DNA from: Carcharhinus longimanus
Taxonomy: Eukaryota
DNA: 64,000 nt
Assembly (NCBI GenBank): GCA_030264375.1
Contig: JASCQW010000146.1
Span: forward strand, 26,407,544-26,471,543
Direction of reading: 5' to 3'
The notes beneath the pieces were generated by a model. That model was given only the letters and a program-made list of their open reading frames with translations. It did no database searches and had not been told where the DNA came from. The first letter of the stretch is position 1, and every line of letters starts with the position of its first letter. Positions 24,869 through 52,699 of this stretch are shown piece after piece. The translations under genes and the position numbers were made by a program.

Positions 24869-25032
24869 CTGGATGTTAAGATTAGGAGCTTAATATTCAG
24901 TCAACCATACATGTCTGCAGTAATTTACCAAACATATCAGATGATAAGAACAATAAAATGTGAATGTTATTCCATTTTCTTCCTTTCCTAGCTTATTTTT
25001 GCCGACTCTAGATGCCTGACCTCTCTGCTTAC

Positions 25033-28800: not shown

Positions 28801-29620
28801 ATTTGAAGTCTTTTTGCTTCAAGTTCCAATTTCATCTTTTCAAATTGGACAATCTTTTCCTTTCTTTATTTTCTCTCTTTTTCCCTTTCTTTTGCTAGGG
28901 CCTTCCTCTCTTTTTTTCTTGCTTCTCTTTTTCCCTTTCTTGTGTTAGGGTCTTCCTCTCTCTTTCTTCTACCTCCAGCCTTTAAGTTCACTTTCCAATT
29001 CCAATTGTTTCATTTACAATTTAATTTTTTTTCTAACTCCACTGTTTGATGGTTTCTCTGATATACCTAAATGCTTGGCTAACTCTGCTATAGTTTCAAC
29101 TTTATCATCATCTCTGGTTAAATCCAATTTTAGCCTGTTTGCTAATTCGATAAGTGTCATCTTTTTCTGTCTTTTTAAACTTTCTTGGCAAATTTGGGAA
29201 GTATGTTCGATCCTCAGAACCTCTTTAACAATGCTAAGAGCCATTTCGTCACTTCTGATTTAACTGACTAGAAGTCACCCAAATTGAACAGATTTTCCAC
29301 TTCTCACTTAAGATTAATTTAAAGATCTAGGATTGTTCAAATTCCTGACCTGAGCCCCCAATCTGCTTTTAAGCGGAGGTTGATCACCCCGCCCCCCCCA
29401 CCCCCGACGTGAACTAACACTGAAACACTCAGAAATATCACGCCTTTTAGTCTGTAAAAAGTGAGAGAAGCAGTGTGACCTGCCCTTCAGCAACCCCGAG
29501 TAGTTAAATGCAAAATAAATCCCTGACACTCACTCTAAAATCAACACGTAACAATTCATTTATCTAACCAGTGAACAAATTAACTAAAATATTAATTCAA
29601 ATTGATTGGCTAAATTCAAA
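25870..29620 (-). mobile_element. Decayed Gypsy-superfamily LTR retrotransposon, Gmr1-like (5' LTR remnant, PBS, gag, protease, integrase; 3' truncated)
   Basis: Integrase core IIDCIGPLPKTKSGNQYLITVMD..GLPREIQSDQGSNFT (25959-26240); protease-like ILRDMGTSLSL (~27810-27843); zinc knuckle CFHCNKVGHIKSQY (~28070-28110); gag YKLIPEAYRQRYRN (~28500-28540); gag start MALSIVKEVL (29244); PBS-like TGGGGGCTC at 29360-29352; many stops and frameshifts. Confidence 0.85.
26670..26966 (+). mobile_element. CR1-like LINE fragment nested in the Gypsy element, running into a 679-N gap
   Basis: RT C-terminal motifs LQLYKVLVGPHLE*..QFWSPYLRKDILALEGVQRRFTR. Confidence 0.85.
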
Positions 29621-29850
29621 AGCCTGCTGTCTTGGTAAAAACTACTGCTTGGCCTTTTGATACAAGTGTTTCATTTTGGGCTCCCTATGTACTTGTATTT
29701 TTAAAAACAAAAAAGCATCACCTTTTAAAGGAACCATGCAATGCTTTTTCCCCCTGACATTTTACAATTTTACCATTTTTACAAACACCAAATTCTAACT
29801 TTCTACCTCCCAATCTACAGTTATTCTTCCCGACCTCGGCAAGATAGCAA

Positions 29851-30104
29851 CCACTGCTGCCTCACAGCGCCAGGGGCCCGGGTTCGATTTCTGGCTTGGG
29901 TTACTGTCTGTGCGGACTTTGCACGTTCTCCCTATGTATGCATGGGTTTCTTCCAGGTGCTCTGGTTCCCCCCACAGTCTGAAAGATGTGCTGGTCAAAT
30001 GCACTGATCCAAACAGACGCTGGAATGTGGCGACCAGGGGAATTTCATAGTAACTTAATTGCAGTGTTAATGTAAGCCTTACTTGTGATTAATAAATCAA
30101 CTTT
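29851..30104 (+). mobile_element. V-SINE-like SINE, second tail type
   Basis: Same head and core, but tail is taacttaattgcagtgttaatgtaagccttacttgtgattaataaa. Confidence 0.8.
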
Positions 30105-30451
30105 AACAAAGGTTATATGGAAGAATCACAGCTTTGCTTTCAGCATGTGCTTGCCACTGAACTGGACTGATTAATTTTGTTTATTTTTCTTGTCATGAAT
30201 TTATCAGTTGGGTTCCTGCTTTCACCACTCAAGCACATTTAAGGCTGGCAGACAGGAAAATACTGATTCCCCCTGTGCAAACCTTTATTGATAGGATATT
30301 AGCATAGATTAAAGTTAGGGAAAGCTTACATTTTTTGCTGCAGTAATATATAGCAGTAATGATGAAACAGAATTATAAATTAGTTAAGACAAAATATAGT
30401 CTTGGCTTGCACTGAGAAACAGGCAAATACCAGAGCAGTGAAATGAAAGTA

Positions 30452-30788
30452 TCATAGAAACCTATAGTGCAGGGAGGCGCCATGTGGCCCATTGAGTCTG
30501 CACCAACCACAATCCCGAGGCCCTACCCCCCTTAACACTACATATTTACCTGCTAATCCCTCTAACCTACGCATCTCAGGACACTAAGGGACAATTTTTA
30601 AGCATGGCCAATCAACCTAACCCACACATCTTCGGACTGTGGGAGAAAACTGAAGCATCGGAGGAAACCCACGCAGACACAAAGAGAATGTGCAAACTCC
30701 ACACAGACAGTGACCCATGCTGGGAATCAAACCCAGGTCCCTGGAGCTGTGAAGCAGCACTGCTAACCACTGTGCTACCGTGCCGCCC
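30452..30788 (-). mobile_element. HE1/V-SINE-like SINE, near full length
   Basis: Reverse complement of the same head, core and tail as 14239-14581. Confidence 0.85.
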
Positions 30789-31876
30789 TAAGTACTGTAT
30801 ATAGAAAGCTGCAGCTCTATGATAAACACCACAGGATGGCAAGTGGCTTGAAAAACTGATGCATTTGAAAAGCTGACTCGAACACTGACTGTTCTAAGCA
30901 GCATCTGGAAGAACTATTCTTCTATCACGTTTGGACACATTTCACAAATCAACACCATCTATTTTCTTCAGTAAACTAAGTACAGAAATGTTTCTTGTCG
31001 CTTATGATTAGCTGAAAAATTCTTGTGACTAAAACAGAAGATTGCTGTAAACTGGAAAGGCCCATGTTTAAAAATGTTTTAGATATTTTCTGATCTGTTT
31101 TTCATAAGATGATTTTAAGAACGTCAACCAATTTGAAGCAAAAGGATGGCATGGTGCAACTGTGTACTAAAATGGAAGTACACAACATCATGCCTACAAT
31201 TATCCTAATTCCTCAAATTCAGTTTTGTCATTAGAGGAGCTCTCAGTGGAAGAGAATAAAATATACAAGCAATCACTTCTATCACAGTTAAACATTACCT
31301 AGCAGCCAGTTCAAGAGAAAGACTGGAAGAAGGCTGATGCTTGCACTCTTGGATGGAGATCATCAAGCAATCAATAACGAAATAGAAGTTTTCTAAAATA
31401 GAAGTTTATATTCTGCAGCAATAAAAGTCTTAGAATTTCAGTCTCCAATGTGGCAGAGAAGGCTCAATTTAAAAAAAGAATACTAAACTTAGGTGCAATT
31501 AAAAAAAAAATCTCACTCTTGCAGAATATTAAGCAACACTTTTTAAAATGCGTACTTTTTAACTCATTCACTACTAAGGGTAGGATTGGGCTTTGTTCCA
31601 ACTCCATTTCTTGACGCTAGGAAGCTGGCAGATGGTGTCTTTATGCACTGTGCACAATGGGTGCCGGGCTTTAATAATTGACAACACAATGGCAACAGAA
31701 TAAATGAATTAAAAGGCGTGATTAAAGTTTGCATCTTTGAACTGAAAAAGCCTTTGGCCACTTATTGTGTAATTTTCCTCATTTGAATTCAATAACTAGT
31801 TTTATTAAAACATTCCAAGCAGTTCAATACCAAAAACAGAAAATAAAAAAGCTTTGAGTGTTTCTTAATTGTTTAC

Positions 31877-31961
31877 CTGTAGTTTGTTTCAGTAAAGCCT
31901 GTCCATTTTTAATGGCTTGATCGACATTCTTCTTCCGGGATATAATGTCATCATTCAAAGC
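31877..31961 (-). CDS. MACF1: MACF1 exon, 85 nt (ALNDDIISRKKNVDQAIKNGQALLKQTT)
   Basis: tgtag|GCT ... ACA G|gtaaac; phase 0/1. Confidence 0.94.
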
Positions 31962-33122
31962 CTACAAAAGAGATCATAGCAGCTGCTTAATAAAAGGATG
32001 GTGAGGTTTCTACGGAAACATCATTCTTGCTTCTCATGACTCTAATGCAAAGGGGTCCAAAAAGGACTGAATCTGAATCGTAGCCAAATGCAAGTAAAAT
32101 TACAGAGCAGCTGCCTTGATCAATGCTGGGAATTGCTGTGAAATGAGCAGCAATTCCTCAGAATCCATGCTTACAACTTTTCATCACAAAATTATTTTAA
32201 GTCAGCATTAGATTATGTTGGTAACAGCATAGTCGTTTTATGAATTAAGTTGTTTTACAAGCCACATGTACATGACTTTAAAGCTATGAATCAAATAGTT
32301 CAAAATGAAAAGATTAAAATGGAATGATCAAAAAAGTGCAATTAGCAGATAAGCCAATAATTTTTTTTAATAGAAAAATTGATTTGCCTATAGAGAGTTA
32401 CACCAAAATACTGATTGTCTGATGATTAACTTCTCAAATATTGGTCTATGCAGCCTTCTGGCTTATCAGTTGAACAACTCAATGTTGGTATTCATGGATA
32501 TCATGAACTAAATGCTTATGCCAAATGTGTTTACATCCATACCTCAGATTAGTAAATATTTTTATTCTGTTCTTTAGAATGCAACAATTAAATAGTCTAA
32601 GTATAATCAAAACAGAACTAACTTCTAACTGTAATATTCCTGCGCAAATCAGATAAAACAGATTGATAAGATGGACAAAGAGGCACCATTGTCGTTTCAC
32701 TTTAGTCTCCATCTTATACGCATATACTTTAGGCTACATGAATTTGATTTCATATTTGTGTACATTATTTTAAAACATTTACGAGCAATGCAACATGAAG
32801 ACAAACCGTGAAATCTAAAAGTGTAGAGTAAGAGGAATAACAAATGCAACAGTAGGAAGATATTCAGGATTTTAATGTGAGGTGTAATTTCTTAGGATTT
32901 AAAAAATAGCAAGATAGATTGAGGCAAGTTACTTTAATTGCAACCTTTATGAAGATAATTTAGAAACAAATGCTAAAATTGAACCAAAGAAACAAAAAAA
33001 AATGAAGTAATTAAAATCAAAATGATATAAAAAATTAACTATCAACAGAAAATTGGTGAAGCGTGGATTAAGTTAACTAAGTTAATGCAACAGAAGAAAA
33101 ACTTTAAAATAAAATGAAATAC

Positions 33123-33449
33123 CAGCTGCTCTGTGTGTTGTTTGTGCAGGATGTCAGATTTGTAATCTTTGATGGTCACCAGACTGAGCTTGTCCTGAAC
33201 ATAAGCCAGCCAGTTCAACACCTCCACTTCTTCCTCTCCAAAGATCTTGGCATTAGCAAGGGCTTGTTGGAGCAAAGCTGCCTTTCGGCTGCACCTGTCC
33301 CCAATCTCCCTATACTGAGTCTGGATAGACTCCAATTTGTCCTCTACCATCTCCTGGTCTGCTTTTGCGCTCAACGTCATGAGAAACTGGCCGACACTGA
33401 CTGCCTGTTGGATGTTCTGACTTTGATTTGTGATGTCGTCCTCTAAGGC
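33123..33449 (-). CDS. MACF1: MACF1 exon, 327 nt (ALEDDITNQ...HKQHTEQL), one spectrin-repeat length, symmetric
   Basis: ttcag|GCC ... CTG|gtattt; phase 0/0; 109 aa. Confidence 0.94.
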
Positions 33450-35856
33450 CTGAACCAAGGATAAAATTATAGCATAAAGAAAACATGATTATGAATTGAA
33501 AATTTTTAACAAAAAAAGCTGATGCATCAAAATAAATTTCAACAAAAAAGACACATATTGCACCTTTAACATGGCAAAACTTTCCATGGTGTCACAAAAA
33601 GAGAAAAAGGAACTGGGAACATCTTTAATTTAATCTAGATCAAATACCATTTATACAGGATTTAGCAGAGGAAACATTAGGCCTTAAATCTGCAATGGAC
33701 AGTTTAATCCAAAAATAAAATTAGTTATTTTCTTAGCTGATAACAACTTTGACAAAAGATTGCAGTTAGTGTAGCTGAGAGAGAAAGTCTGGACCAAAAT
33801 TATGTTAAACTGGCCAGGGCAAAAAAAATCTTGATGCAACTTCAAAAACGTTTTCAAATTTGGTTTGAAGCCAAAAATGAACTTAATAACAAATGACCTG
33901 TCTGAATACAAGAAAGCAAACATCTGCAAAGCTAATTCTTCCCAATCTATAATGCAGGAAACATCTTAATACTTTATTACTGTTTTTTGTATGCAACATT
34001 TCTACATTAGTAATATATAAATAAAAACATGCCCATAATATATAAACGCTCAGCCAATTCCGCAATCACTAGGAACAGAGTTGAGATTGGCGAACAGGTT
34101 ATTTTTAACTTTATTTTTAAAGTCAGGCACTTTCGTTCCATTAATTTGGGCGTTTGGATTTTCACCTATGTTCTAAAGGTGACAACTGGATGCTACTAGT
34201 TCATACTATTCATACCTTTACGTCTCTTTCTAATGCCTTCAACCATTATCATTTATGCTTAATGTGGCAGACACAGTGAAGAGTGGAGTTACTCTAACGT
34301 TCTCATGAATACTGTTCATTAATAACCAAAGTGGCAAGAAAACATAGATGACTGATCTTAAAAGTATTTCACTGTTTGCAAAATAAAGCTCACCACAGAT
34401 GCAGGACAGCACACTCTGAGTGCAATCAATTAGCACAGCAAAGTTACAATAATTAAGAATTTAATATAGTCTCAAAGGTTCTCCAATAGGTTGGCCATCT
34501 AGTGACTGACTGAGCCAAAGAAATCAGCAAGTTTTAGGTCTTATGCTAGGAGTTAGTTAGCCTCAGCTAGGACAGGAATAGGACTCTTGGCTCAGGCAGA
34601 CAGTAATCAAGCAGGGTTCCATTCCTTGATGGTGAATCTAGTTTGACGCTCACATTTGTGGGTGTTGAGCAAAGACAGCACTGGCTTGATTGTGAAGTCC
34701 CCTGGTAATGCAGCCTGCTGAAAATTACTTCCATCAATTCTAACAGAGGAATAAAAGTCACTTGAGTGGGGCATTAAAATATGCCTGTGGAACCTTATCG
34801 CAGCAAAAATTCAATGCATTTAGAAGAAAAGAAAACTAGCAACATGAAAAAGGGAATAATCTCAAGAGCCACTGAGTGGAGTCCAATATTCATTGAAAAT
34901 GGGGATGGGGCAGGGTTGAAAGAGTTTCATTAAAGTTACAGTTGAGAATTATTTTTAACAGATACATTGAACATAAAAGTAATGATTTTTTGCAATAAAA
35001 TGTTAGAAACCCCTATTATTAAGTTCTTTGCAATAGCAGGCAAAGCTACATTACTTTCATTTAGGGAGTTAACAGGCAATGTATTGAGACACAACAGGTG
35101 GTTTTGTGAAAATGAAAGATAGTTTGGATAAGAATGAATGAGAGATACATGTACATGTATACAGAAAAAGTTCTTGCTAAGGATAAATCCAATTGGATCT
35201 GATTTTAGTTCAAATCAATAAACCAGATTCTGGCGTGTCGCCAACAAAAGTAGTAATTCTTCCTTCAGTTGAATGGCATTGTGAAAACTTGGCTTACTCC
35301 CAGCTTATTTTCTCTTTCTAGTGTTTCCTTGTCATCCATTAAAAACAAAACAGAAAAGAAAAAGTTTGAACTCTTCTCAGTCCAAACAAAAGGAAGCTTG
35401 TTTTTCTTTCTCATACCATCACAGCATTTGACAAGTGTTGTTACGGTGAGGGAGGGGGACAAAAAGGTGATTGTGTTGGATTTTCATTTCAACATTTTAT
35501 TTACTTAAAACCAAAAAGGACTCCTGTGCATTTTTGCAAATCATTGCAAATATATATATTTACACACAAGGTTTATGGTGCATTATTTCCTTTCCAGGAT
35601 GATTGTTGTTTTTTTAAAATGGTGAAGGAACTGCAGAGTGAGGATATTTTGCAATTATAAAGTCCATACGTGACTTCAGTAGAACAAAGTTAGAGCTGAT
35701 TCTGATGCATTGTGAATAAAAGAATACACAAAACTTGCATGTTTTATTTACTATAACAAGAAAATAAAGTCTGAAAATGTAATAATTTTACATTGTTTAA
35801 AGCTAAACCAGTAAAATGCCACAAATGAAGTTATACCATGGAATGATGCCACTCAC

Positions 35857-36016
35857 CTTATGGCGGGTAATTTGCTGCTGGATTTTAGCAGTTTGAGTTC
35901 CTACAGGTTCAGAGTTGGCCAATTTCTTCTCCTTGCTGGTTAGCCACTCATTCAAGGGCTCCACTGTCTCGTGGAACTGCTTTGCAATGACTAATATATC
36001 CTCTAACTGCCTCTGC
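35857..36016 (-). CDS. MACF1: MACF1 exon, 160 nt ([17 protein letters not shown]...QQQITRHK)
   Basis: tgcag|G CAG ... AAG|gtgagt; phase 2/0; translated by hand (absent from ORF track). Confidence 0.94.
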
Positions 36017-37796
36017 CTGCATTAACACAAAGCACATAGTCTCCAACTGCTTAAATATTATTGTGGTGCAAACATTTACACAAACAGCATGAGAAATCAT
36101 TCATGGTGACTGCATTCAATTAAACAAAATCTTAATAGCCTCATTCTTACACACAGTTTAAAATCTGTGGGCATATAAGCTGGAGGAGTAGACAATGTGC
36201 ACAAATACATTACATGTGGTGTAAAGACAGGTGCGAGCGTAAGAAGCGGTCGGTGTGAATATTTGACTGGGGCAAATTGACAAACAACAGAATAAATGAC
36301 TGTTCAAATGATTATGTGCACAGACTATTGAATTATGGTTACATTTAGTGATTTTCTTCCCCCCTCAGAGCTGAAATATGTTCATGCAACAGCAGAGTAC
36401 ATTTTTGTAAATGGATGTAGAATATTTTTCTAATGAGGGCCTCTGATTTATTTTAATGAGTAAAGACAATATTTATTAAATGTTATAGCTGCTGTTGTTT
36501 TGTTCTTTGGGGAACATGTTATATGGTTAACACATGTTAAGTTTTCTTCTAAGCCGACTCTTTGGATAAATATAGGTTTTGGATTTGTAAGGTCTATAAT
36601 CAGATGTTCAAATTTGACAGCTTTAGTTATTAAGTAGAATGAAGATTCCATTATAGCATTCAGAAGGCACTTTCTCTTACAAAGCTACCAGTGATTCAGA
36701 TACACATCTAGTATTACTGCAGCCAGGGATCAAATATACAACACCCCTCACTACACAACTGTGGATTTAGAAGAATTCACTCAACTATAGGGAAAAGGAA
36801 GTAATAAATCACATAAAATGACAACTACTGAAATTGACCTTCTTTGCATCTGTGCAGATATCCCTTTGCAAATGGCAATATAGCTGTTTGATTTTTTAAA
36901 AATGGATTTGTTTGTACCAAATATGATGCTCATCCCTAGTATTTTATAGGATTTCGGAATAGGAGTGAGAAAATGGTTTTGTGCCAATGTGTTTTTTTTT
37001 AGTAGAAACAGTTGACCAATTGTCTTCCACCCAATGCCCAAACAGCTAACAGATAGTGCAATGATACGAATGGATCTACAGATTTTAAATGGAGTAAAGC
37101 TATTAAGTTGGGTTTGCTTTAAGTTGTTGTAATCCAGTTGACAGTGACCCGTCTGCACAGCTGTGCATGCACATATGCAGTCAAGTGTTTACAAGTCCAA
37201 TAGTCATCACAATAAAAGCTTTCCTCCACATTTGACGAGGTGTGGTAAAATCTCACCATTGATTCATACAAGCTGTTCATGCAAATGTTTGCAAAATAAA
37301 CATATCTCAAGGTTTTGTTGAACTCAGATGGAACAAGTGTCTGCTTTGCTTTTTATGCATTTTCTGTATTCTTTACATGTATGTAATTAACCAAACGAAC
37401 AATTTGGAAATCTTTTCTGCTTCCAATCTTTTCCCTTTAATATTTCATTGGTACAATGGAACCCAAAAATTTAAAAATATTAAAATTCTAGTTTTGCTCA
37501 ACTGACTTTAATGTTGTTTGTTCAATCTTTCTATGGTACTGATAAGAAAGTTTGGCATTCACAACATATTTATATTAAAAGTTAAGGAAACACAACTCAT
37601 CAAAACTAGAATGTGTAATATGTCTCAATTTTGACTTCAAACTCTCCACGACTGACTAAGAATGACTATGGTGGGAACTTTTAATTTTGGAAAACTGAAA
37701 TGTTTCCACAAAGCTGTTTAAAAAACATCTTGATTTACACACACAGCAAATATAATGGTTTTGTCTCTCCCATATGAACATGAAAAGATCTTGTAC

Positions 37797-37963
37797 CTTG
37801 CTGCGGCCTTGCTGAGCAAACCATCCCATCTCTCTCCCAGACTCTGTAGTTGTTTCTGAATCTTTTCTTTTTCAGCTGTTTCTGCTGACTCTGCTATTCT
37901 CTCCCCTTCTGCCTTGATAATCTCCACTGTGGATTTGCGATCATCCAGTAGTCTTTGCAAGAG
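37797..37963 (-). CDS. MACF1: MACF1 exon, 167 nt ([12 protein letters not shown]...LLSKAAAR)
   Basis: cccag|CTC ... AG|gtacaa; phase 0/2. Confidence 0.95.
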
Positions 37964-38539
37964 CTGGGCAAAAGAAAAGCAAAAGTGACAACAGTTGCCA
38001 AGAGGCTTTACATTTAAATCTCACATTTTTGTGGAACACTGCTAAAGCAACTGCCCTGGGAGGCTGCTCCATGTATAAGCCTTTCTGAACTTCTTTATGC
38101 TTTCCACATTCTTTGTAAGATACTGCAAAAATATTTTCCATCTTTTCAGCTCTTATTCTTGAGTTTTATAGAATGCTGAGCATTTTAAGAAAAAAAAAGT
38201 CCTTGGTCAATAACAGATTTTCAATCCCATATGATGCAACAATAAACCAAAATAAAAATAGTTACTTCTTCCTCTCACTATACAACACAGCTGCTTGACC
38301 TATGTGCTTGTCTATGCACAGGGAGGGAATGGACGAAAAATAAATATTCCCCCCCAGAAGAGACAAAGTAGTTTGAAGTCTTGCCAACACTTAACAGCTT
38401 GAAAAGAGATCTGTTCCTTGTTGAAGATTCCAGAGTTGGTTCGCCCTTCAGTCCAGTCTGATGCAACAGCAAGTTCCCAGTCATGCTTACCACAGACAGA
38501 TTAGATCCTGCTACAGGGTATTCCAGTTTTTTCGAATGT

Positions 38540-39290
38540 ACAAGATGCGAACAAAGAGCATTAGTCCATTTGGCCCCTCAAGCCTGCTCCACCATTCCAT
38601 AAGATCATGGCTGATCCGATTGTGGCCTCAACTTCACAATCTGTCTCCTCCAGATACCTTTCAATTCCACTGTTCAAGAACTTATCTGCCTCTGCCTTAA
38701 AAACATTCAATGATCCTGTCTTCGCTGTTTTCTGGGGAGAAGAATTTCATAGATTCACGACCCCCAAAGAAAAAAATTCTTCTCATTTCTGTCTTAAATG
38801 GGAGACCCCTTATTTTTAAATTATGCCCCCCAGTTCTCCTCTCTACCACAAGGAGAGCATCCTTTCAGAATTCACCTTGTGAAGTCCCCTCAGGATCTGA
38901 CATGTTTCAATAAAATCACCTCTCATTTTTCTTAACTCCCATGGATATAGGCTCTACCTGTCCATTCTCATACCCCTACCACAGCAATCATTCAAGTGAA
39001 CCTTTTCTGAACTGCTCCTCACAGATTTATTTATATCCTTTCTTAAATGAGGCCAAAAATGTACACAGCACTCTGGATGTGGTCTCACCAACACCCTCTA
39101 CAACATCCCCACTTTTATATTTTATTCCCTTGCAATAAACAACATTGCATCTGCATTCATAATAACTCGTTGCACCTGCATAATGTTTTGCGATTTGAGA
39201 CAGGACACCCAGACCCCTCTGTCTGCAATCTCTCTCCATTTAAATAACATGCTATTAAGTTCACGTTTCCCATCTTATATTCCATATGCT
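38540..39290 (-). mobile_element. CR1-like LINE 3' region (decayed)
   Basis: Remnants of the RDLGV..YCVQFW..EMRRNFF..VVNLWN region and a CR1-type 3' tail. Confidence 0.7.
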
Positions 39291-39508
39291 AACTTCCCTA
39301 CAGCTGCACTGCCTTAACTCCAAAAACATACATCAACAAACATTTGCACTCTCATCAAGTTCAATGCAGATCAAATATTTTCTTTACACAAAAAAATTTT
39401 ATAGAATTTTCAAAATCACTTCAGAAATGATTAAATATAAGGAAACTATCTAAATTGGATCAACAATATTTCAAGCCCCTTTAAAAACCACACACTACTA
39501 CGTGCATG

Positions 39509-39630
39509 AGGCAGGATTTTATGGCCTCGCTCGTCCCAAAACCATAAAATCCTGCCTGAGGTCAGCTGATCTTCCCATGGTCCATCCCTCGCCCGCTCTA
39601 ATTCTGGTGGCAGGTGGGGTGGTTCTGGTC
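39509..39630. mobile_element. Short MITE-like element with a perfect 16-bp inverted repeat
   Basis: aggcaggattttatgg (39509-39524) and ccataaaatcctgcct (39542-39557), 17-nt spacer. Confidence 0.65.
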
Positions 39631-41002
39631 ATTATGTTCTGAGTGTTTTGTTAATACATGTAGTTAAGTATTCAGTACTGAATGGGTTCAAGAGTCCATT
39701 GTATATTTCACTGTTTTACAAGCAGATTAGCTAACTTGATAAATGGAAAAATATGTCTTATAAATGTCCAAAATTCCTGAACCACTGAAGGGAAAAATAA
39801 ACCATCAATCCGAATCCTTCTATTAGCAGCAAAGAACAGTGGTTCGAAATAGTGGAACCAGAAGTGCTGCCTGACCAATATAAACTCAGTAATCAAGAAC
39901 AAATTCAGTTAAGTATTAAACTTCCATTAATGTCAGCACAAAACAGATCATCCTGAGAAACCTCCATGTGTCAATTTACTGCTTTTGCAAGCACCAATAT
40001 ATCAAAATTGCTTCAAACAATACACGTGACTTCATATTCTTGGAACTACAATAAAACACAATAGCCCATGTTATCCAGAATGTGCAACAGACAAAAGTTA
40101 CAATAAGTAAGAAAGCAAGTAGAAAAATGTCACTGCTATTCACCAACACAGGAGATGATTCAACAGAAACCGCTTGAGATTCACAGTTGTTGCTACAACA
40201 GCAACATCAAGGCTAGAATTCAGTAATAAGAAAATGCAGTACACAGTCCAAAATGCAAACATTTTACCAACAGTTCCTGGAACTGCAAGGGGATTGAGAT
40301 TTTGTTGAAGGCAAATCATGTCAGTAAACAAATTATACTCATCAGCTAACTAAATTACTCAATTTCAATTTAAAACTCCCCTGTCCCATTTGCACAGCTT
40401 TTTTTCTTGCACTACTCAGATAATGAAAACTTTGAAGCTGGAACAAATTTTAGGGCAAGAAAACTGATGTGGTCTATTAAAAAAAAAGAGCAATTGCTTT
40501 CATGAAAAGTTGTTTCACAAAAAACTTCCTTTTGTTTTAAGGCAGGTGAAGCATAAGAATAATGTGCCACTTTCTCATGGTTATATTATATACAAGTAAC
40601 ATGACAGGCATTTCAAACCTTCACACTGTACATCAGCAAAACAAAAAACTCTGACAAACGCCATATCGAAGGCAGTGCCCTTTAAGAAGTTATAGAAATG
40701 TGGCAACGAGATAAGTTTTATTTTACCAATGAACTGGAGAGAAGAATAGTGATTTTTGCTATTCAGATTTGGCACAGATTCAGTGGATGGCCACTTGTTC
40801 ATCTCTGATTACGGAACAAATGTCTCTTTGTAGTCTATACTCTAAAAATAAAAAATGCAGCAGGGTTTTCTAAAAGTTTGTTCCATGCTTCAAATTTCAC
40901 CCCCATTAAAAATGCAGTTATTAAAACATAAACCACCAATGTTTGAGCTTATTTACTCAAAATAATTCATATCAACTGACTCATTCCTACAATGTAAAAT
41001 AC

Positions 41003-41173
41003 CTTCTGTTCTTGAATTTGTGCCTTCACCACTTTGTATTCTGCTGATGGAGGTTTCTGATTGGCAATCAGTTCTTCAGTATCTGTAAGCCAGCTCAACA
41101 AAGGTTCCAAAGCATCCTGGAACTTTCCACGGTGCAACAGTGCTTCTTGTAACTGGGATATACGTTCTGCCAC
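41003..41173 (-). CDS. MACF1: MACF1 exon, 171 nt ([13 protein letters not shown]...AQIQEQK)
   Basis: cccag|GTG ... AAG|gtattt; phase 0/0. Confidence 0.95.
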
Positions 41174-41369
41174 CTGGGAAAAAAACATTTCTTATTACCC
41201 AATATGGTCTTAACAACTCTACTTTAGAGTTCCCCTGCAGAGATCCAAGCGTCTTAGAGGAAAAATTAAAAGAACACAATTAAGCCAAAGGGAAGGGGGA
41301 AGTAGTGATAAAGAAAGAAGAGCAATGTGGGCAGAGGAGCCCTGGGGGAAGAATGAGTGGAATTGCGGG

Positions 41370-41842: not shown

Positions 41843-42004
41843 CTTTTTATTGAGTGTGTTCCATCTGGTGTTCATCTCATCCAGATCATGTTCAAGTCCT
41901 TGGGTGTTGGCATTCTTCGCAGCACTCTGAATAAGACCCTGTCCCACCCCATTAGCCTGCTGAAGTTTGTACTGGATGGGGTCCACCTGAACTTTCTGGA
42001 ATAT
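41843..42004 (-). CDS. MACF1: MACF1 exon, 162 nt ([16 protein letters not shown]...TRWNTLNKK)
   Basis: ttttag|ATA ... AAG|gtcagt; phase 0/0; 54 aa spectrin-repeat segment. Confidence 0.93.
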
Positions 42005-43059
42005 CTAAAACAGAAGAATAATGAGAAACAAATCAGTCTACAATACTGTCATAATAGCTCACCTTGAAATATTATGAAATAATACAATTTTGCACAGAAA
42101 TGGGAGGATTGTGATGTGTATCTGCATTGAGTCAATAAAAAATTAAAATCACTTATTAAATATGCAAAAACACATCTGGAATGCAGTACCGACAAAAGCT
42201 AAGGTCTAAGGCACAAAATATAAAAAGTGCATGAAGGTACAAAACTGGGTAATGTTTGTTTTGAAAGGTCTGTATTTTACCAGAATTGTTATCAAAGATC
42301 AAAGCAAGCCAAAGATTGAATCATAGTTTATACAAAAACAAAACCACCTCTCAAGTCCTCAGATCACACTCCCACAAAAAAAAGTCAGTAAACTCACAAT
42401 CAATAGATGGAAACAATTAAAAGAACACTACTGAATCCTAATAACGAACAATCTTCCTTAACCCTATGATGTCTAACAATCAAATACTTTCTAGCATTTT
42501 CTTCAACTTTGAGTTATGCTATTCTTTACACATTACAGGTTCAGTAGTCAGAGAATCAAAGGAGCTTAGCCAATTTATATTTTATGTTTCATTTTTTAAG
42601 AATGAAAATCTAAATAGTCATATTTGGTAAAATTATGAAGATTGTCTTAGGAAGTTATTTATAGACACTGCTAAAAGTAATTCTCTGTTTAATGCTCAAG
42701 AGTCTAACTGAACTAATTTCAACTCTCCTAGTAGAATCTTTGCTTTTTTTGCAGCACAGATAAATTCTACTACTCATTTAGTAAGGAAAATTAAGCCATT
42801 TGTTCCCCTAAAAGCTGCAAGAGTTAAAAAGTTGGATTAATTTCTTGACTTGGCCCAATTCTCTCAAGTTGGGTACAAACATTTTCCAAGCACAGAATTT
42901 ATTTACATGGACCTGGGAAGGGGAAGTAGAAATACATACCTAATTGTTTCAAGTGGGCTCTCACTGATGTAGTGGGTTTTGAGCCAAGTGTGCTTGTTTT
43001 TATTGGAAAAAAAAAACTAGTAGTTTAAAAATTAAGGACACCACACACCCCAAACACAC

Positions 43060-43330
43060 ACACTTCCATCTTCTTCCATTGGGAAAAAGAGTCTGAGGTC
43101 ACGTACAACCGACTCAAGAACAGCTCCTTCCCTGCTGCCATCAAACTTTGGAATGGACCTATCTTGCAATAGGCTGATCTTTCTCTACACCCTGGCTATG
43201 AATGTAACATTACATTCTGCACTCTCTCCTTTCCCTCTCTAGGAACGGTATGCTTCATCTGTAAAGTGTGCACGAAACAATATTTTTCATTGCATACTAA
43301 TACATGTGATAATTCAAAATCAAATCAAAC
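43060..43330 (+). mobile_element. Rex1/Babar-like LINE 3' end
   Basis: NRLKNSSFPAAIK motif and the same 3' UTR and (tcaaa)n tail as 62135-62524. Confidence 0.7.
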
Positions 43331-44672
43331 ACTCATCAGGTTGTTCACACTTCAGGTACCATGGAACAGAGGAAATGTGTAAAAAAAATGACTACCCCAT
43401 GGGACAGATTGTTTGACAATGTATTGTACAATTCTAGGCCCAGAGGCAAAATGGTGCATAATACAAGTTGAAAAATTATGAACTGTTCAAATTTTAGGTA
43501 TTCCCACTGCTAAGATAAACAATTTGTAAACATTAATTGGATAGTCTATTTGATTGAATATACAGTGATTGTGAATCTTCCCTGATTGTTGTGTAGTGTG
43601 TGTTATCTGGAGCCACACACTGATTTGCAAAGCACAAGAGAAATAAAGTACCCAAGAATGAACATCATCAGCTTTAAAAATCAAAACATTTTTCTTTTAT
43701 TTTACTTTTCACCATTGTCCAAAGTTTAGAAAAACTTGTTAATGACTTCAAATATTTGTGCCAAGAAACAATATTTAATTTTAGCTGTTTGATGCGGTAA
43801 GCCAACTCCCAGAAAACTCTGAAGCCAGTCATTTTAATTGATTTCCCCACCCTATACTGAGGAAATGGGCAGCAGTGGACAAGTTATCAACAAATTACTT
43901 TCAAAATTCATCTTGGACAGTGGAGTAAAATAGCAGCAATGGACTGCCAACCCATCTTCAATAGTCAACTGAAAAACCAATTTGGACAGAACGCAAAACG
44001 ATTTGCTAATATGCTGTTGCCAATTTTGTGCTACAGTCCTTGACATATTTGTATGCCATTGTTTTTAGATATCCAGGAAAGAATCCTGACCAAGAACATT
44101 TGTGCAAAACTGTACTTGATCAAATAAATGACCAATGCTGGAAAATGTTCCAGCAGCTTTCACAATAGTAAATGTAGAATATTTTGAATGTAAAAAAGAG
44201 AGGAACTGATGCCCAAGGGCTTTGCTAACAATGCCCTTACTTATCTACAACAGGCAAAAGTAAAATCACAGTTAATAAGTGCAATTTTCTCATGCCAGGA
44301 GATCTGATTTCAAGCATATGCTTCCCATGCAGCGCAGACAGTCTAATATACAGAATGCAGCTGATGATAGGAAAAAAAACTCAACCACGTAGTAATTCTA
44401 TGGCAATGGGTGATAATTGAGTTAAGCAGAATTAGCTTTTGAAGAATGAAGGGCAAGGAATAATTTCACAGACGACACCATTTTAAATGATCTAACGTAT
44501 TAGCAAAGGAAAAGCTATAGAAACTGGAAAGATGGTGAGGAGAAAGAAAATATATTGAAGACTCAAATGTGTGACTATTAAGAATTGATTTTCCTCTCAA
44601 ACATTAAAAAGCATGAGCCATTGGGAACTTCTTGATTGACCTTCACTCAGTCTGCAGTAGTTCACGAAATGT

Positions 44673-44782
44673 AAGTAGTCTCACAACACCAGATTAAAGT
44701 CAAGGAGGTTTATTTGGAATCACAAGCTTTTGGAGCTCTGCTCCTTCATCAGGTGAGTGGCTTGGTGTTGTGCAACTTCTTA
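44673..44782 (-). mobile_element. Penelope-like terminal-repeat fragment with inverted ends and degenerate hammerhead core
   Basis: aagtagtctcacaacacca ... tggtgttgtgcaacttctt; minus strand reads CTGATGA-A-GGAGC-AGA-GCTCC-AAAA-GCTT. Confidence 0.55.
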
Positions 44783-45892
44783 NNNNNNNNNNNNNNNNNN
44801 NNNNNNNNNNNNNNNNNNNNNNNNNNNNNNNNNNNNNNNNNNNNNNNNNNNNNNNNNNNNNNNNNNNNNNNNNNNNNNNNNNNNNNNNNNNNNNNNNNNN
44901 NNNNNNNNNNNNNNNNNNNNNNNNNNNNNNNNNNNNNNNNNNNNNNNNNNNNNNNNNNNNNNNNNNNNNNNNNNNNNNNNNNNNNNNNNNNNNNNNNNNN
45001 NNNNNNNNNNNNNNNNNNNAAGATTTCTTTGGCCCTCAAACTCTGCTCAAATGATCGTCTGCCTGCATGCATATATTGAAGTTCAAGCAATTAAATCAGA
45101 TAACCAGATTCCGGTTTCAATATCATCAGGCTAAACTATCACAGAAGATAATTCAGAGATGTGGGTCATGTGACTGTATTAAATTAGCTCAGATTATTCA
45201 AAACAAATTGAGTTGGCTGCAGTTTCAAATGACATCCTTTTAACCAAGGTCAGTGAAGGAGGATCTGGCTTGTGCTATGCTTTGTCTATTACAAGGAACA
45301 TGCGGCTGTATTCTTAGATTTAAAAACTATAGATTCCACTAGCAGTCAGCAAGAGGTTTTGGGAGCTGATCAAGGTAAGGGTTTCCTGACTAATTTGGAA
45401 CTCAATGGGTTGCAGACAAAAAAAAACTAGTACTGTAGCTATGTTTTTAAAGCAATAAGGTTAGTAAACATGAGATATAATTTTCAGTGGTTTCTATGCT
45501 CAGCTGGGTAACCATTTTCATAAAATCAAACAATGATATCACTAACTTCCATCTGTATCTGTTGCTAAGCATAATCCCATTTGTATAAACACATAGCAGA
45601 ACAATACATAACTGAAAAGTTGTGGAATAATTACTGCACAAGAATGTAAAAATATCAAAACTTTCCAAACTTATGAACTGTCACATAGTTTGAATATTTG
45701 AGTAACAAAGTTCAATGCAACTATATAATTATACAACCTTTCTAGCAATTGGCCCTAACAACGCAATTTCTAGAAAGATTAGAATAATCACCCCTTACTT
45801 TTCACTGCACTCAACTACCCTCAGGCAACTAAGGGTGGCAATAAATGCTGGCCAGCCAGCACTGCCCATGATTTAAGTGAATAAAAGAAACA

Positions 45893-46169
45893 AGAACCAA
45901 AAAATCCCTCCAGTGCAGAAGGAAACCATTCGGCTCATTGAGTCTGTGCCGATTCTCTGAAACAGCATTCCTCCTAGGCCAAGCATATCTGCTGTAAATC
46001 TGTACATTTACCAAGGCCAGCACATCTTTGGACTGTGGGAAGAAACTGGAACACCAGGAGGAATCTCACACAGATACAGGGAGAATGTCCAAACTCCACA
46101 CAATCAAGGCCAGAATCTAACCTGGGTCCCTGGCGCTGTGAGGCAGCATTGCTAACCATTGTGTTGCCC
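45893..46169 (-). mobile_element. HE1/V-SINE-like SINE
   Basis: Same head and core on the reverse strand. Confidence 0.8.
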
Positions 46170-47569
46170 CAAATTGAGAGTGTCCAATTCATGTACAACA
46201 CAAAAATCCTGAACATATTTAAATACATACGTGAACAAATAGAAAAATCTTAACATCCAATGAAGGAACAATGATGCAGACTCAAGAAAAAACATAAAAG
46301 TCAGTTTCCTAGATAGGGGTTCCAGATATTCAGCTGGGCCATTAATGGCGTTAAGAAGAATCGTCTGCCACACTGCTTTTTCTACTCAACCCTGCCAAAC
46401 ATTTTATAGTCCACGTAAATGACAATATTGATACACAATGGAGAATGACCCATTTCCTACACTCTCAGGGAATATGCATTGTGTGATAAGGAAGGTAATC
46501 CTAACATAGAAAAAGGTATCATATCCCCAAATGAACAAACTTGCTCATTCAGGTGTTACATAGCTATGGTGAAGTTATCCAGTATATGCTGTTCTGAGGA
46601 AGGTAACTCGCGTGCAAGCATTTTGCGTTCAAGCATTATTTCATCAATGATACTCGGTGAGGCTGGTTTCAAATTTGCATGTAAGCAACATTTTATGTCA
46701 AGTAACAGACCACAACAATATCTACGGTTCTGCATATTTTTGACCATGTGTAATACATGCACACTTTGATGTTTCCTCGGTTGATGCTTTTGGTGCGCAC
46801 GCATTGCTTATAGTAAATCTGATATTACCAAAGTTCCTCTTTTTACAATTTAGCCAAAATATGAATTTAAGTATTAACCAAGATATCATTTTTACAGTCA
46901 CCATTTTTATATTTTTTTTGTTGGAATTTTAAAACTTCTGCTCTATGATAGTGAAATGGTTTTGGCCAGACTTTTGAACTGTTGCCAACAATGCTACTCC
47001 AACAGCCAGTTATACTCATATCTATTTAACATCCTTAGAATCAACCAGACTTATTCAATAAAGGTGGCAAAGTTTGAAAGTCAGCTGATTTACAGGTTCT
47101 AACTGAAGCAATTTGCCTGGGAATCTGATACTTGAACTTGTAGGTTATCCAGTTGCGAATTCAACAAACATGTTCATTTTAGTTCTCCAGCAATGCGAAA
47201 TAAATCAGTGTTAGTCAATACTGAATTTTTATGCATATTTTAATTGTTATATGTCTAAAATTTTGTATACAATGTTTTGCTTCGATAGTCAAATTTTTGA
47301 TCTGGGCAAGTTAAATGAGCACCAGGTCACAGTGAGAACATTACAGCTGTTGGAGCCTGACGACTTGAAGCAAGCTTTTGTTTCAATCACATTATAATAA
47401 CAGCATTTCGCAAACACTGCATTTAACTGACTTTGGTGGGGGGGAGGTCAGGATATGACTCAAGTTGTATTCACTGATGACTTATCACGGTTTAGTTGAA
47501 TCTCTGTTAGAGACTGCTGGATGCATTTGTATATGCATCAAAAAAGATCATTTTAAATTTATTGTACAA

Positions 47570-50500
47570 TTAAATTGTTTCATATGCTTTCATGTCACAC
47601 TCTTCATTAATTTGGTCAGGAAAATTAGTGATTTTAAACATAAATACCTCAATATCTGCATCCAGTTCTTCACTTAAAACAGAAAAATCAACTTCATTTG
47701 GCTCCACAGTGGATTCCTCTGCTTCAGTGTCTAAAATTATATTGAGTGAACCTGGCTCCAAGGTCAACACCCTTGGGTTAGTGTCATTGGAATCTTCCGG
47801 TGATTCTACCTCAAATAAATATTCTAGCGTTCCTTCTTCAATAAAGTCATCCTCAAGGCATGAACCAGAAACATTTTCCCACACATCTGCTTTCAGGTTT
47901 GTTTTCCTACTTTCAGCTGCAGTTGCTTGTGTTGTCACAGTTGCTTCACTTACGTCCATTTCTTCATCAGATTGGAAAAGAAACTTAATTGCCTCAAGTG
48001 GCTGCTCAATATCCATGTCAAACAACAATACTCCACCGGAACCTTTACTGTTTTGAACAAACATATCAGACTCAAAATCTATTTTGGGGGGATCACTTTC
48101 AAATTGCTGTTCTGAGCCATGTATGTACACTGTAGCAACAGCATCTAAACTTTCTGACCATTTTACTTCACCCATATCTATCAAATCTTTCTGCTCATTG
48201 AACTGAACATCAGTGCAACCCTCAGTGTGAAGTGGAATCTCAATCGCTTCAGGTTTCATTTTCAAGTCTGATGACTCTATTTGAATGTCAATTTCCTGTA
48301 CTTCAAATCCAATACATTTCTTCCCTTCTTTCTCTAAATTAAGGCCCTGCTCCTCCTCTTCACAGCCACCAGGGAATTTCTCCACATCAGAGCCTACATC
48401 AGGCACACAAGAAATTACTGATACTTCCTGACTATAATTTGACTGATAGTCACTAGATTCCGAAAGAGAATTTGTAGTTCGGGTCTCAACAGCCATTTCA
48501 CATTCTTCTATTTGTATGTAAGTGGCCTCCGTATCCTTGGTCTCCCCGTCATTGGGCAACATCGCCATGTCCAAAGCACAGTATGAGGGATCAAGATGTG
48601 ATGTTACAGTGGAGTCTGTTGAAGGATATTCAATTATATCATGTTTATTTAATTGCATAGAGTTTTCCCACAATTCCTTGGTGTTCTGCACACTGGACAA
48701 ATTTATTAGTTCCTGAGGACAGCAATCAAAATGCGTTCTTAATGGTATGGATGGATCTTTAGGACATTGAACAGTTGTTTCATGTTCTTCTAACCGAACA
48801 GACTTTTGTCCATCTTTTTTTATGCCAGCATTATGGATTCCACATTCCTTGATTAAAGTTTCAGGTTCAGTACCTGTAGTTCTTACTTCAAACACAACTT
48901 CTTTATCACAATTAGAGTTTTCCTCTGAATTCACTTGCACCTCTTTGGAAGGAAATTTTGGTCGATTCAAAAGATCATGACAGAATGTTATATTATAGTC
49001 CTCCCCAGACATCGCTGTAATATCTTTCTGATAGATGTCACCCTCCTCTGATCCAGCTGTGCTAAAATATGCATCTGACTGCTGTACTTTGGATTTGAGG
49101 GTGCACTCAGACTCCTCTTTCTGATGAATATTATTTTTCCAATCTGTGCAAGTTGATTTTTGCTCAGTTGCAGTTATTCCCTCAATCGCTTTTTTATTGC
49201 TTTGTGATTTACAACCTAATCCTTCAGAACATTCTCCAACTGCAGAATTTGATTTTGGGATAGCCATAAAGTTTTCTTCTGCTTCTACTGACACATCATA
49301 TTTCATTATTTTGTCAACCAACAATTGGTTCTCTTTTGCTTCAAATCTCAACAAAGAATTTGCGTCACCTTCTGTGCTTTCCAAGATTACAATTTCTAAC
49401 TGTTGGAGTACTGATTCTTCATCAAGGACTTCGCTGTCTTCAATCAAACATCGTTGTTCTTCTTCTTCAAATTGTTGTAGGGAGTCTGTATCACCCTCCA
49501 TGTGTTCCAAGATTTCTGAATCCAACTGAAGGGTTGGCTGCTTATTAAAAGCTTCTCGGCCTTCAAACAAGCTTTGCTCTACTTCTTCAAATTGTAACAG
49601 GAATTCTGTATCTGCCTCTGTACTTGTAAAAATTTCAGCATCTAACTGAAGTGCTGACTGTTCATTAAAAACATCTCGGTCTTCAAATAGTTTTCTCTCT
49701 TCTTCAAATTGTAGCAGAGAGTCCATATCACCCTCTCTGGTTTCCATTACAGCATCTAGTTGTTGAAATGCTGATTTTTGACCAAATTCTTTGTCATTAA
49801 TCAGCATTTGCTCTTCTCCAAATCTCGAGAGAGTGTCTGCATCTTCCTCTGTGACTTCCATGATTGCAGCATCCAGCTGTTGAAGAACTGATTCCTCATT
49901 TTCAATTAATTTCTGCTCCTCTTGTTCAAATTGCAACAGTGAGTCCATATCTTCCTCTCTGACTTTCATGATTGCAGCATCCAGCTGTTGAAGAACTGAT
50001 TCCTCATTTTCAATTAATTTCTGCTCCTCTTGTTCAAATTGCAACAGTGAGTCCATATCTTCCTCTCTGACTTTCATGATTGCAGCATCCAGCTGTTGAA
50101 GAACTGATTCCTCATTTTCAATTAATTTCTGCTCCTCTTGTTCAAATTGCANNNNNNNNNNNNNNNNNNNNNNNNNNNNNNNNNNNNNNNNNNNNNNNNN
50201 NNNNNNNNNNNNNNNNNNNNNNNNNNNNNNNNNNNNNNNNNNNNNNNNNNNGTGAGTCCATATCTTCCTCTCTGACTTCCATGATTGCAGCATCCAGCTG
50301 TTGAAGAACTGATTCTTCACTGTTTTCAGTTAATCGCTGCTCCTCTTGTTCAAATTGCAACAGTGAGTCCATATCTTCCTCTCTGACTTCCATGATTGCA
50401 GCATCCAGCTGTTGAAGAACTGATTCTTCACTGTTTTCAGTTAATCGCTGCTCCTCTTGTTCAAATTGCAACAGTGAGTCCATATCTTCCTCTCTGACTT

Positions 50501-51812
50501 CCATGATTGCAGCATCCAGCTGTTGAAGAACTGATTCTTCACTGTTTTCACTTAATCTCTGCTCCTCTTGTTCAAATTGCAACAGTGAGTCCATATCTCC
50601 CTCTGTGACTTCAATGATTGCAGCATCTAGCTGTTGTAGAACTAATCCTTCAGCATTTTCAATTAATCTCTGCTCCTCTTTTTCAAATTGCAACAGCGAG
50701 TCCAAATCTCCCTGTGTACTTTCCCGGATTATAGCATCTAGCTGATGAAACACTGATTCTTCATTCAGAAATTCTGAATCAAACAACATTTTTTCATCTT
50801 TACATTGCTCCTCAACTTCAGAATGAACACAGCCTTTTAATTCCATGCCATAATCCTGTTCTTCAAATTCAGCCATAACCTCCTGCACGTTATATATGTC
50901 AGTATCTAGTTTGGTTGCACGCAAATCCAAAATACCTCTACACTCTATTGATGTTGCATAGGCAGTTTTCCTTTCTTGTGCTATTTCATAAGCTCTTCTA
51001 TGCATAAATGAAGCATCTTCTAATGTTCCTTTAGCTCGGAAGGCTCTTGGCCATGTTGCAGATACACATGCCTGATTTTCTGGTAAATGTCTCATCATCA
51101 TTGATGCATCCTTGTATTCCAGTAATGGAGCACATCCACTTGCTGAACTTTGAGATAATAGTGCAGCATCTTTCAAGTTATTTTCTGCTCCTTGCTGAAG
51201 TGCGGAATCTTTTTCATTTTCGGACGTATGCGTGGTCAATTCTTTTTCAGGAAAGAGATTAGGAATTTCAACAGGGAAGTGGCTTGAATGTCTTTTCTCT
51301 TTATTTAAATCTGCACTGCCTGCAGGCTCATTTGCTGGCATTTCAGTTCTTTCTGTGAACTCTGGAAAGTTTGGTGGCAGGAAAGCTTTCCATGACCTCC
51401 TGTTAATATTCTCCTTCCTCTCCACATGAGGTCTCCTTTTTGGTGGGCCAGAGGACCGAATCACATCACTGCTCAGTTTTAATGCATCAAATATAACTCT
51501 TTCATCTAATTTTTTACTTTCAGAACTAGTTCTGGTTTCAAATACACTGGACGTGGTAGGAGTTCCATTACTTGATAAAGTGCTAGACTCGACAGCCCTC
51601 TGGTTTACTGAGTGTGTATGATCAGCAAAACTTCTTGATGGCTGGTTAGTCTTTGATCCTAAGTCTATCTGTTCATTAATTCTCATAGTGTCATATATGG
51701 ATCTTTGTGGAATGTAACAATCTTCAATGTACATATCATCCTCTTCATTTTTTCCTAAACAGGTGGGATTATTGCGTCGTAAACAGTCTGGCCTGCTAAG
51801 CGGTTTCCCCAT
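47570..51812 (-). CDS. KIAA0754: KIAA0754-like giant single-exon ORF / alternative first coding exon of MACF1 (>=1381 aa, acidic, likely largely disordered)
   Basis: Starts MGKPLSRPDCLRRNNPTCLGK..IEDCYIPQRSIYDTMRINEQID..KKLDERVIFDALKLSSDV..NRRSWKAFLPPNFPEF, matching the human KIAA0754 N-terminus as I recall it. ORF-track pieces 50142..51812 and 47570..50320 are separated only by the N run at 50152-50251. TAA at 47570-47572; in-frame donor GAG|GTATTT at 47648/47647. Confidence 0.88.
49325..50765 (-). repeat. Coding tandem repeat, >=12 units of 36-41 aa (core 108/111 nt; EESVLQQLDAAIMEVREEDMDSLLQFEQEEQRLTENS)
   Basis: Visible in DNA and translation; central units identical, outer units progressively diverged; N gap sits in the homogeneous centre. 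Confidence 0.95.
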
Positions 51813-52699
51813 AATTCAAAAGTGATTTAAATAATCCACAAGAAAAAAAAAGGTCAAATTTTCAGCACCGAGTGACTTGCACTTCAATTCCAACAGAGAA
51901 ATGTATTTGTGAATTGTAATTTAATCAGCAGTCTCTAATATGCAGATGCTCCAACAGCATATTACTCACTTGTCACATATAAATGAGGCACATCCGATCA
52001 GTAAAAGCATCTCTACAGAAAACTACATTTGTGCATTCAATTCAGATCCTCTCTGGTCTTCTGTTCATATGCATCATGGTTGATAAGAATAAAGCCTTTT
52101 GTATGTTGTAGTCCAACTCTGTAAATTCCTTTCATTTTAACCACAATCTACAATGCCCAAGTACCCGGCTGCTGCAGAAGGGGCAGTCCTTGAAAACTAG
52201 CATGTTTTCTTTTGAAAAGTGATTCTTAGCGGATATTCCGGCAGATTCAAAGACAGGAAGTTCTTCAATCAGTGGAGCTTCAGCTGCTTCCTTTCTTAGC
52301 AACATCATGGCATTTTTTAAAACTGTACAACTTCAGTACAACATGACCAAAGGTTTCCAGATGATTTTTAAAGGAATGATATCAGGTCATTACCTAAATA
52401 ACAATTATTTGCAGTTTGCTGTTATTAAACCATTCTGTCATTTGATGCTGAATTCTAGTTAGTGTCTAGTTTACACTGTTTATCCAGTGGAGAGCACAGA
52501 GCAAAAATAACTCCAATATGAAACACTCTGGTGCCAAGAGTTGTCAGCTCCTAATTCAGCAAGGCTTGGCTATTTATCTATTCCTATTTTAGTCCAGGTG
52601 TTTTCCCCCATATCAGTTGGCAAAAAGTTGTCTTTTTCCTCTTGGTTTATGAACTGAAACAAACAGACTATGAGATACATCCAAACAAAGTTAATTTTC

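Follow-up and report, generated by a model that had tools for sequence, protein, structure and literature searches.

A long coding exon inside the MACF1 gene of the shark Carcharhinus longimanus was analysed in a window of 64,000 nt (GenBank assembly GCA_030264375.1, contig JASCQW010000146.1, positions 26,407,544 to 26,471,543). This exon, here called the head exon, is real, is the shark orthologue of KIAA0754 and lies inside a MACF1 intron. It is an expressed and annotated alternative head of MACF1 that is evidenced for sharks, with expression seen in contigs of relatives. Probably, it is an internal first exon that is spliced onto the distal spectrin rod, and its predicted myristoylated start would tether the microtubule-binding end of the protein to membranes instead of actin. 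All coordinates are positions in the window, and the head reading frame runs on the minus strand. The following elements form the junction between head and rod:

47648..51812, minus strand: coding sequence of the alternative head exon, orthologous to KIAA0754, up to the donor; at least ~1355 codons, interrupted by an N gap
47642..47650, minus strand: phase-0 splice donor GAG|GTATTT, used in related organisms
42005..47647, minus strand: GT..AG intron skipped by the head-rod junction, 5643 nt
41843..42004, minus strand: shared rod exon of MACF1 (IFQKVQVDP...NTLNKK), with both boundaries in phase 0
2273..41176, minus strand: further MACF1 distal spectrin-rod exons

There is hardly any doubt that the head-rod junction 47648>42004 is used in related organisms. 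Contigs of four public runs (four studies, four organisms) were compared over positions 41510-52600. The joint 42004/47648 was present in all four, and the ends of the 5643-nt skip read CT..AC on the plus strand. In run X1 a single contig of 6318 nt holds 54 letters of the head exon and the entire rod exon, and in runs X2, X3 and X5 the rod side of the joint consists of 28 letters plus 2 ambiguous ones. In each of the four runs the unique bins of the skipped intron held no contigs (12 of the 30 bins in X2, 9 of 30 in the other three), so the runs behave as RNA would; the intron bins with cover behave like high-copy repeats. Contig depth (5-24 in the head, 21-145 in the shared downstream contig) was not used for ranking isoforms, and a run search that listed no RNA data set with the exon says nothing on expression, nor do six more runs from these studies or species, which contain almost none of the searched words. 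Both splice sites named in the original prediction were confirmed in the sequence. The donor at 47648/47647 is in phase 0 and lies 25 codons upstream of the stop; at 42005/42004 the acceptor TTTTAG|ATATTC starts the exon IFQKVQVDP, likewise in phase 0. The spliced isoform proposed in that prediction is supported by checks of the kind it suggested: sequence spanning the junction was seen in the contigs of all four related runs, and a donor-compatible E|V (or K|V) was found near the end of the reading frame in 92 of 107 free-standing homologue records, using a motif pattern written after the sequences had been seen.

For both MACF1 and DST, full-length models from mammals, birds, frog and teleosts combine the head with spectrin, EF-hand and GAS2 domains. 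Across bony vertebrates and both genes, head-plus-rod models with EF-hand and GAS2 accounted for 60 matches among 123 candidates. A comparable wombat model holds only spectrin, EF-hand and GAS2 domains in Pfam, and Pfam gave no significant domain in the head itself. A canonical spectraplakin carries calponin-homology and plakin domains on one chain, an architecture that the head isoform does not show. The spliced protein would be ~3,600 amino acids long and would lack the actin-binding and plakin domains, as ~1,355 head residues are followed by a downstream part that comprises 2,258 amino acids in the wombat model. The prediction that the distal rod and the EF-hand/GAR end are kept held for the exons, since EF-hand, GAR and tail exons of MACF1 lie downstream in the shark's own genome, beyond the window (L019-L023); from these we infer one transcript running from head to GAR.

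Residues 1-160 of the head matched 232 proteins among 383 candidates of 911-2600 amino acids. Among the 120 matches listed, identity to these residues was 94% for the Scyliorhinus model, ~70% for tetrapods and ~60% for teleosts, and many of them carry names such as 'KIAA0754 homolog' or 'MACF1, isoforms 6/7-like'. Assignment of the locus to dystonin was rejected, as both the flanking exons and the head cluster with MACF1 and the genome has a DST locus of its own. The flanking exons resemble chimpanzee MACF1 more closely than lizard DST (e.g. 88 vs 75%, 85 vs 64% and 81 vs 59%). The phase of the shared rod exon likewise fits the canonical exon upstream, whose phase-0 end LADFK|GTAAGG lies outside the window. 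This end is located ~23.4 kb upstream of the head ATG, and therefore the head sits in a 33-kb intron.

The two-isoform layout is already annotated in mammalian databases. Human and mouse MACF1 'isoforms 6/7' have the same head (69% over amino acids 1-160) in the same intron, with the same junction onto the xFQKxQVDP exon, and the spliced and the free form are both on record. A human partial MACF1 model (KAI2516368.1) joins the head as NSDE-MFQKEQVDP, and the mouse entry, 'Isoform 7 of MACF1, isoforms 6/7' in UniRef (NP_001161390.1), is a free protein of 1115 amino acids. We take NM_001167918.1, an entry listed in the supplement of Voelzmann et al. 2017, to be the mouse KIAA0754 mRNA. In the shark, the middle of the head is an acidic 36-37-amino-acid array, compared to the PEEP repeat of primates, the tail is unrelated in sequence to that of human and mouse, and the free form is without transcript support. 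As the layout is known from annotation, its occurrence in a shark is no surprise, and its value lies in a testable function. What is new beyond annotation is the head in the matching dystonin intron of the shark genome and a hagfish model with the head on the same exon.

The reading frame of the head is interrupted by an assembly gap:

47570..51812, minus strand: reading frame of the head exon, ATG at 51812 to TAA at 47572-47570
49461..50763, minus strand: in-frame tandem array with periods of 108, 111 and 120 bp, exceeding the S. torazame array in length
50152..50251, no strand: 100-N assembly gap inside the tandem array, likely a placeholder of unknown true length

The original prediction described a frame of at least 1381 codons without stops. 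Its start and stop were found as described, and the single stretch was not, as the 100-N gap separates 520 stop-free codons before it from 859 after it. When the gap is counted as 100 bases the two halves are out of frame; when it is removed or filled with whole repeat units they are in frame. One head frame of ~1,380 codons or more is likely in the shark genome, because two close homologues have unbroken heads (P0001, 1208 amino acids; Scyliorhinus torazame model P0002, 1138 amino acids before the junction). Beyond the conserved start the head is acidic and repetitive, with a D+E content of 21% in the first 520 and 24% in the last 859 amino acids.

51813..52600, minus strand: upstream sequence, likely 5' untranslated region, covered without splice by contigs of relatives

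The head exon is probably an internal first exon with its own promoter, of which the transcription start was not located. An in-frame TGA at 51818-51816 closely precedes the head ATG, and the sequence in between contains no AG; the ATG is therefore taken as the true N-terminus, favouring an internal first exon. The ATG has A at -3 and G at +4. Contigs run unspliced from the reading frame over ~790 nt upstream to 52600, and three extend further by ~320, 320 and 410 letters, judged by record lengths. The observed/expected ratio of CpG is at most 0.71 in 200-nt steps over the 3.6 kb upstream of the head, and no sequence similarity was found between the sequences upstream of the MACF1 and DST heads. 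Upstream reading frames could limit translation of the head if the 5' untranslated region is longer than 1 kb, as the contig cover suggests.

51333..51812, minus strand: conserved N-terminal 160 amino acids, low-confidence, mostly coil model with short helices
51777..51812, minus strand: predicted site of myristoylation, MGKPLSRPDCLR, comprising G2-K3-x-x-S6, a hydrophobic L5, a basic R7 and C10

The N-terminal 160 amino acids are 90-94% identical in the two close homologues, ~70% in tetrapod MACF1 heads and 57% in the shark's own dystonin head. On balance, we favour lipid attachment, by predicted myristoylation, at G2. The first 12 residues (G2, K3, L5, S6 and C10 included) are invariant in an alignment of 20 heads, the 12-mer MGKPLSRPDCLR was found in 298 of 307 stored heads, and the hagfish head keeps G2, K3, L5 and S6 and changes at positions 7 and 12. 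In section 5 of bioRxiv 10.1101/2021.06.22.449375, GKXXSX was deduced as the myristoylation motif for K3 proteins, in which a hydrophobic residue 5 compensates for a missing K7. The shark sequence G-K-P-L-S-R fits this motif, with L5 present and K7 absent, and thus agrees with the motif of K3 substrates of NMT. Palmitoylation at the invariant C10 or at C18 is possible. AlphaFold, run on a 10-sequence alignment, returned a low-confidence chain with short helices (mean pLDDT 53, pTM 0.20), and the ESM Atlas yielded no usable match for the head. An in-frame extension before MGKPLS was observed in 37 of 307 stored heads (P0238-P0333, dystonin-type); many of these extensions share a hydrophobic stretch ending IFVLTIYK and may be an artefact of the ORF (open reading frame) caller or an alternative non-lipidated start.

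Several observations weigh against a spliced, membrane-tethered isoform. The N gap leaves continuity of the frame unproven in the shark's own genome. The joint is bridged by at least 31 letters on both sides in only one of the four runs, and these runs, which come from relatives and lack a DNA control, are only guessed to be RNA (X5 is without recorded kind). Most head-plus-rod proteins are automatic gene models, and the 31 ATGs in the 1.6 kb upstream (window 51813-53400, minus strand) could dampen translation. With respect to the lipid, the count of 12-mers among the stored heads is biased, since shared words are what the searches pick out. NMT disfavours K3, and the shark head has R in place of the preferred K7. 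KIAA0754, O94854 and MACF1 are unmentioned in the main text of bioRxiv 10.1101/2021.06.22.449375, and the literature search found no paper with both KIAA0754 and myristoyl, although myristoylome tables in subscription papers or supplements may list it. The suboptimal K3 and R7 would also suit an isoform that is real and carries no lipid anchor, in which the invariant start and the blocks YIEDCYxPQRSIYDT, LDERxIFDALKL and RRSW would bring the rod to a partner by acting as motifs for protein binding or phosphorylation. Indeed, conservation extends over 140 residues in separate blocks, beyond the needs of a lipid signal, and the short, low-confidence helices of the AlphaFold model are as expected of linear motifs. 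This explanation is rather unlikely, in view of the invariance of the five key residues in the aligned heads and the retention of four of them in hagfish. Moreover, according to the same section of that preprint, K3 substrates that lack K7 do receive myristate if they have a hydrophobic residue 5, and lipid and binding roles are not exclusive. Far less probable is a cassette exon that is spliced into full-length MACF1 between the two flanking exons instead of providing a new start. Both flanking exons are in phase 0, and several automatic models begin downstream at MRINEQ or use other acceptors; however, the in-frame TGA without an intervening AG, the unspliced contigs upstream of the ATG and the position of the most conserved residues, which are the first twelve, make such a cassette highly improbable.

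47570..47647, minus strand: read-through tail, 25 codons plus TAA, without cover in four runs and not conserved among homologues
47558..47563, minus strand: AATAAA, candidate intronic poly(A) signal, TGTAC directly before it

The original prediction further saw read-through of the donor with intronic polyadenylation as the source of a free protein. The AATAAA 6 nt past the TAA was confirmed at 47563-47558; the free protein is unsupported in sharks, as no contig covers 47430-47647 in any of the four runs of relatives, where contigs drop rare forms. The depth of the bin 47430-47799 is that of pieces ending at 47648 (2.81, 2.13 and 9.82 exactly; 9.57 vs 9.59) and the next bin is empty, so the tail is uncovered. 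Compared to a control set of the 22 other donors of shark MACF1, a read-through of 25 codons is nothing unusual: at least 25 codons were found at 6 of 22 (median 14). An AATAAA occurs within 30 nt past the read-through stop at none of the 22 and within 100 nt of the donor at one; the Poisson chances are 0.02 (30 nt) and 0.08 (100 nt), for windows chosen after the fact. Of the read-through features only the AATAAA is mildly unusual. The tails past the donor measure 1-62 amino acids in the homologues (median 22), with apparent frameshifts even within mammals (92 of 107 records), and that of the closest homologue has 8 amino acids vs 25 in the shark. Judged from the sequences, the exon end is conserved and the tail past the donor is not; a conserved C-terminal tail, as looked for in a free KIAA0754 protein of the 'isoform 7' type, was not found. 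The 25-codon tail was rejected as evidence of a switch, as tails vary and control donors read through as far, and the matching 25-amino-acid tail in mouse was dismissed because lengths scatter so widely. On present evidence, transcripts that read through to the AATAAA make up a minor product in sharks, if they are produced at all.

A regulated two-way switch, in which intronic polyadenylation makes a functional free head protein in sharks beside the spliced isoform, is accordingly regarded as unlikely. Besides the position of the AATAAA and the TGTA just before it, such a switch would find support in the free form on record (mouse RefSeq NP and UniRef 'Isoform 7', rat NP), in the shark donor, which lacks both +4A and +5G, in the own dystonin head with an ATTAAA ~120 nt past its read-through stop, and in some teleost second copies recorded without a rod. 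The passages of Voelzmann et al. (bioRxiv 10.1101/122010) that treat the exon leave both readings open. However, contigs cross the intron in all four runs, +4A and +5G are both missing at 7 of the 22 ordinary donors, 3 of the 22 begin GTATT, and any ORF caller makes a 'free protein' from a phase-0 exon; the variable tails argue in the same direction. A free head could still matter, because its function would lie in the head and the mouse RefSeq entry exists. Divergent teleost heads (P0356, P0357, P0359, P0361, P0365 and P0367-P0371; salmonid name si:ch73-305o9.3) keep MGKPLSRP and are recorded without a rod, by Pfam on two, and some end in donor-like E|V or K|V. If their rod exons are truly lost, they represent a natural free-standing head.

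The head is not restricted to MACF1. A second head match (58%) was found on another contig of the shark genome (G000:C27:114191407-114192702; L013:1407-2702). This own dystonin head is an ORF of 431 amino acids in the homologous DST intron, with a phase-0 donor GATAAG|GTAACT after VFTDK, six codons before the stop, and the ATTAAA mentioned above; the whale-shark model P0314 leaves the dystonin head after the same VFTDK residues. Dystonin (DST/BPAG1) heads share the identical first 12 residues, the homologous intron and a phase-0 donor few codons before the stop, and models from mammals to teleosts place them on the VFQKEEIEP exon; they measure ~430 amino acids vs 1,000-1,400 for MACF1 heads. 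In a midpoint-rooted tree of 24 heads, from which hagfish was left out, MACF1 and DST split at 100/100, with one own-genome head on each side. A profile search of 1.84 billion representatives gave 53 matches, the weakest of which is a low-complexity repeat. Twenty were looked up, and the 16 that could be named are all vertebrate, including the hagfish P0349; no invertebrate head was seen among these 16 of 53, which is weak evidence of absence outside vertebrates. P0349, one automatic model, joins a ~606-amino-acid head to the same rod exon, followed by spectrin repeats. By sequence comparison, the head layout predates the MACF1/DST duplication and likely also the cyclostome split, so that it would date from the first vertebrates. 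The jawed-vertebrate ancestor named in the original prediction is therefore too young, because the head has a paralogue in dystonin and occurs in a hagfish model. The human cDNA FLJ26213 (P0241) encodes a dystonin head that departs from other mammalian heads past ~residue 310 and looks chimeric.

For the spliced, membrane-tethered isoform we propose that a promoter inside MACF1 starts a transcript at the head exon, and that the phase-0 donor would join the head to the distal spectrin rod, with the actin-binding and plakin domains dropped. The chain would then consist of a lipid anchor, short binding motifs, a long acidic spacer, the distal rod, EF-hand and GAR, in this order. The acylated start would tether the head to the membrane, so that membrane binding replaces actin binding, and the acidic middle of ~1,200 residues may act as a flexible spacer. 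A role of the isoform under selection is suggested by its 12-residue start, which is near-invariant in both paralogues and, apart from positions 7 and 12, retained by a hagfish model. With doubt slightly outweighing confidence, we suggest a spectraplakin class older than the split of hagfish and jawed vertebrates, with an internal promoter in MACF1 and dystonin and an acylated head on the distal rod, that would form an actin-independent tether between membrane and microtubules. Such a class is functionally undescribed in the literature found. If the lipid anchor exists, spectraplakins can link microtubules to membranes without actin. Knockouts or patient variants in the 5' half of MACF1 or dystonin would spare the isoform and GAR-end variants would hit it. 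The reading of such knockouts and disease variants may be affected, because lesions upstream of the exon would leave the isoform intact. Where made, a free head would compete for the same membrane sites. CAMSAP3 binds ACF7 at residues 4023-4134, according to a review (bioRxiv 10.1101/122010), and residue 3144 of NM_012090 lies upstream of KIAA0754 by the listing in PMC4450850. If the numbering of the CAMSAP3 site follows NM_012090, the isoform retains this site and could hold the minus ends of microtubules in place.

Dystonin N-terminal leads with potential myristoylation or palmitoylation sites, as described in passages of a review, are a related case in which an alternative first exon gives a spectraplakin a lipid anchor. 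These leads, from the 5' end of the gene, precede the actin-binding domain and leave the plakin domain and the entire rod in place, whereas the shark MACF1 head enters mid-rod, with actin-binding and plakin domains lost. Voelzmann et al. 2017 (bioRxiv 10.1101/122010) give the same two readings, spliced and free, for an exon that is likely the present one; the passages concerned assign it neither a function nor a lipid motif and do not date it by shark or hagfish. KIAA0754 had been called poorly characterised in the original prediction. This applies to its function, for which no study was found, and not to its layout, since two isoforms are annotated and were likely noted in print. Our literature search, with subscription papers and preprint supplements outside its scope, found no functional study, lipid claim or pre-tetrapod dating of the exon. 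By their titles, the papers pairing KIAA0754 and MACF1 are association or expression studies. In the parts concerned, PMC4450850 places a variant, labelled KIAA0754/MACF1, in exon 1 of NM_015038, and PMC11940482 merely lists O94854 under MACF1.

Elsewhere in the window, high-copy SINE-like repeats with summed depths in the thousands occupy ~43100-43310, 44660-44760 and 45830-46165 of the skipped intron. Degenerate reading frames at ~22850-23270 appear similar to a fragment of a LINE reverse transcriptase. An intact-looking tRNA-Pro(AGG) gene (10486-10557, plus strand; ARAGORN; Rfam 53.9 bits) lies antisense in a MACF1 intron and is followed by a T run.

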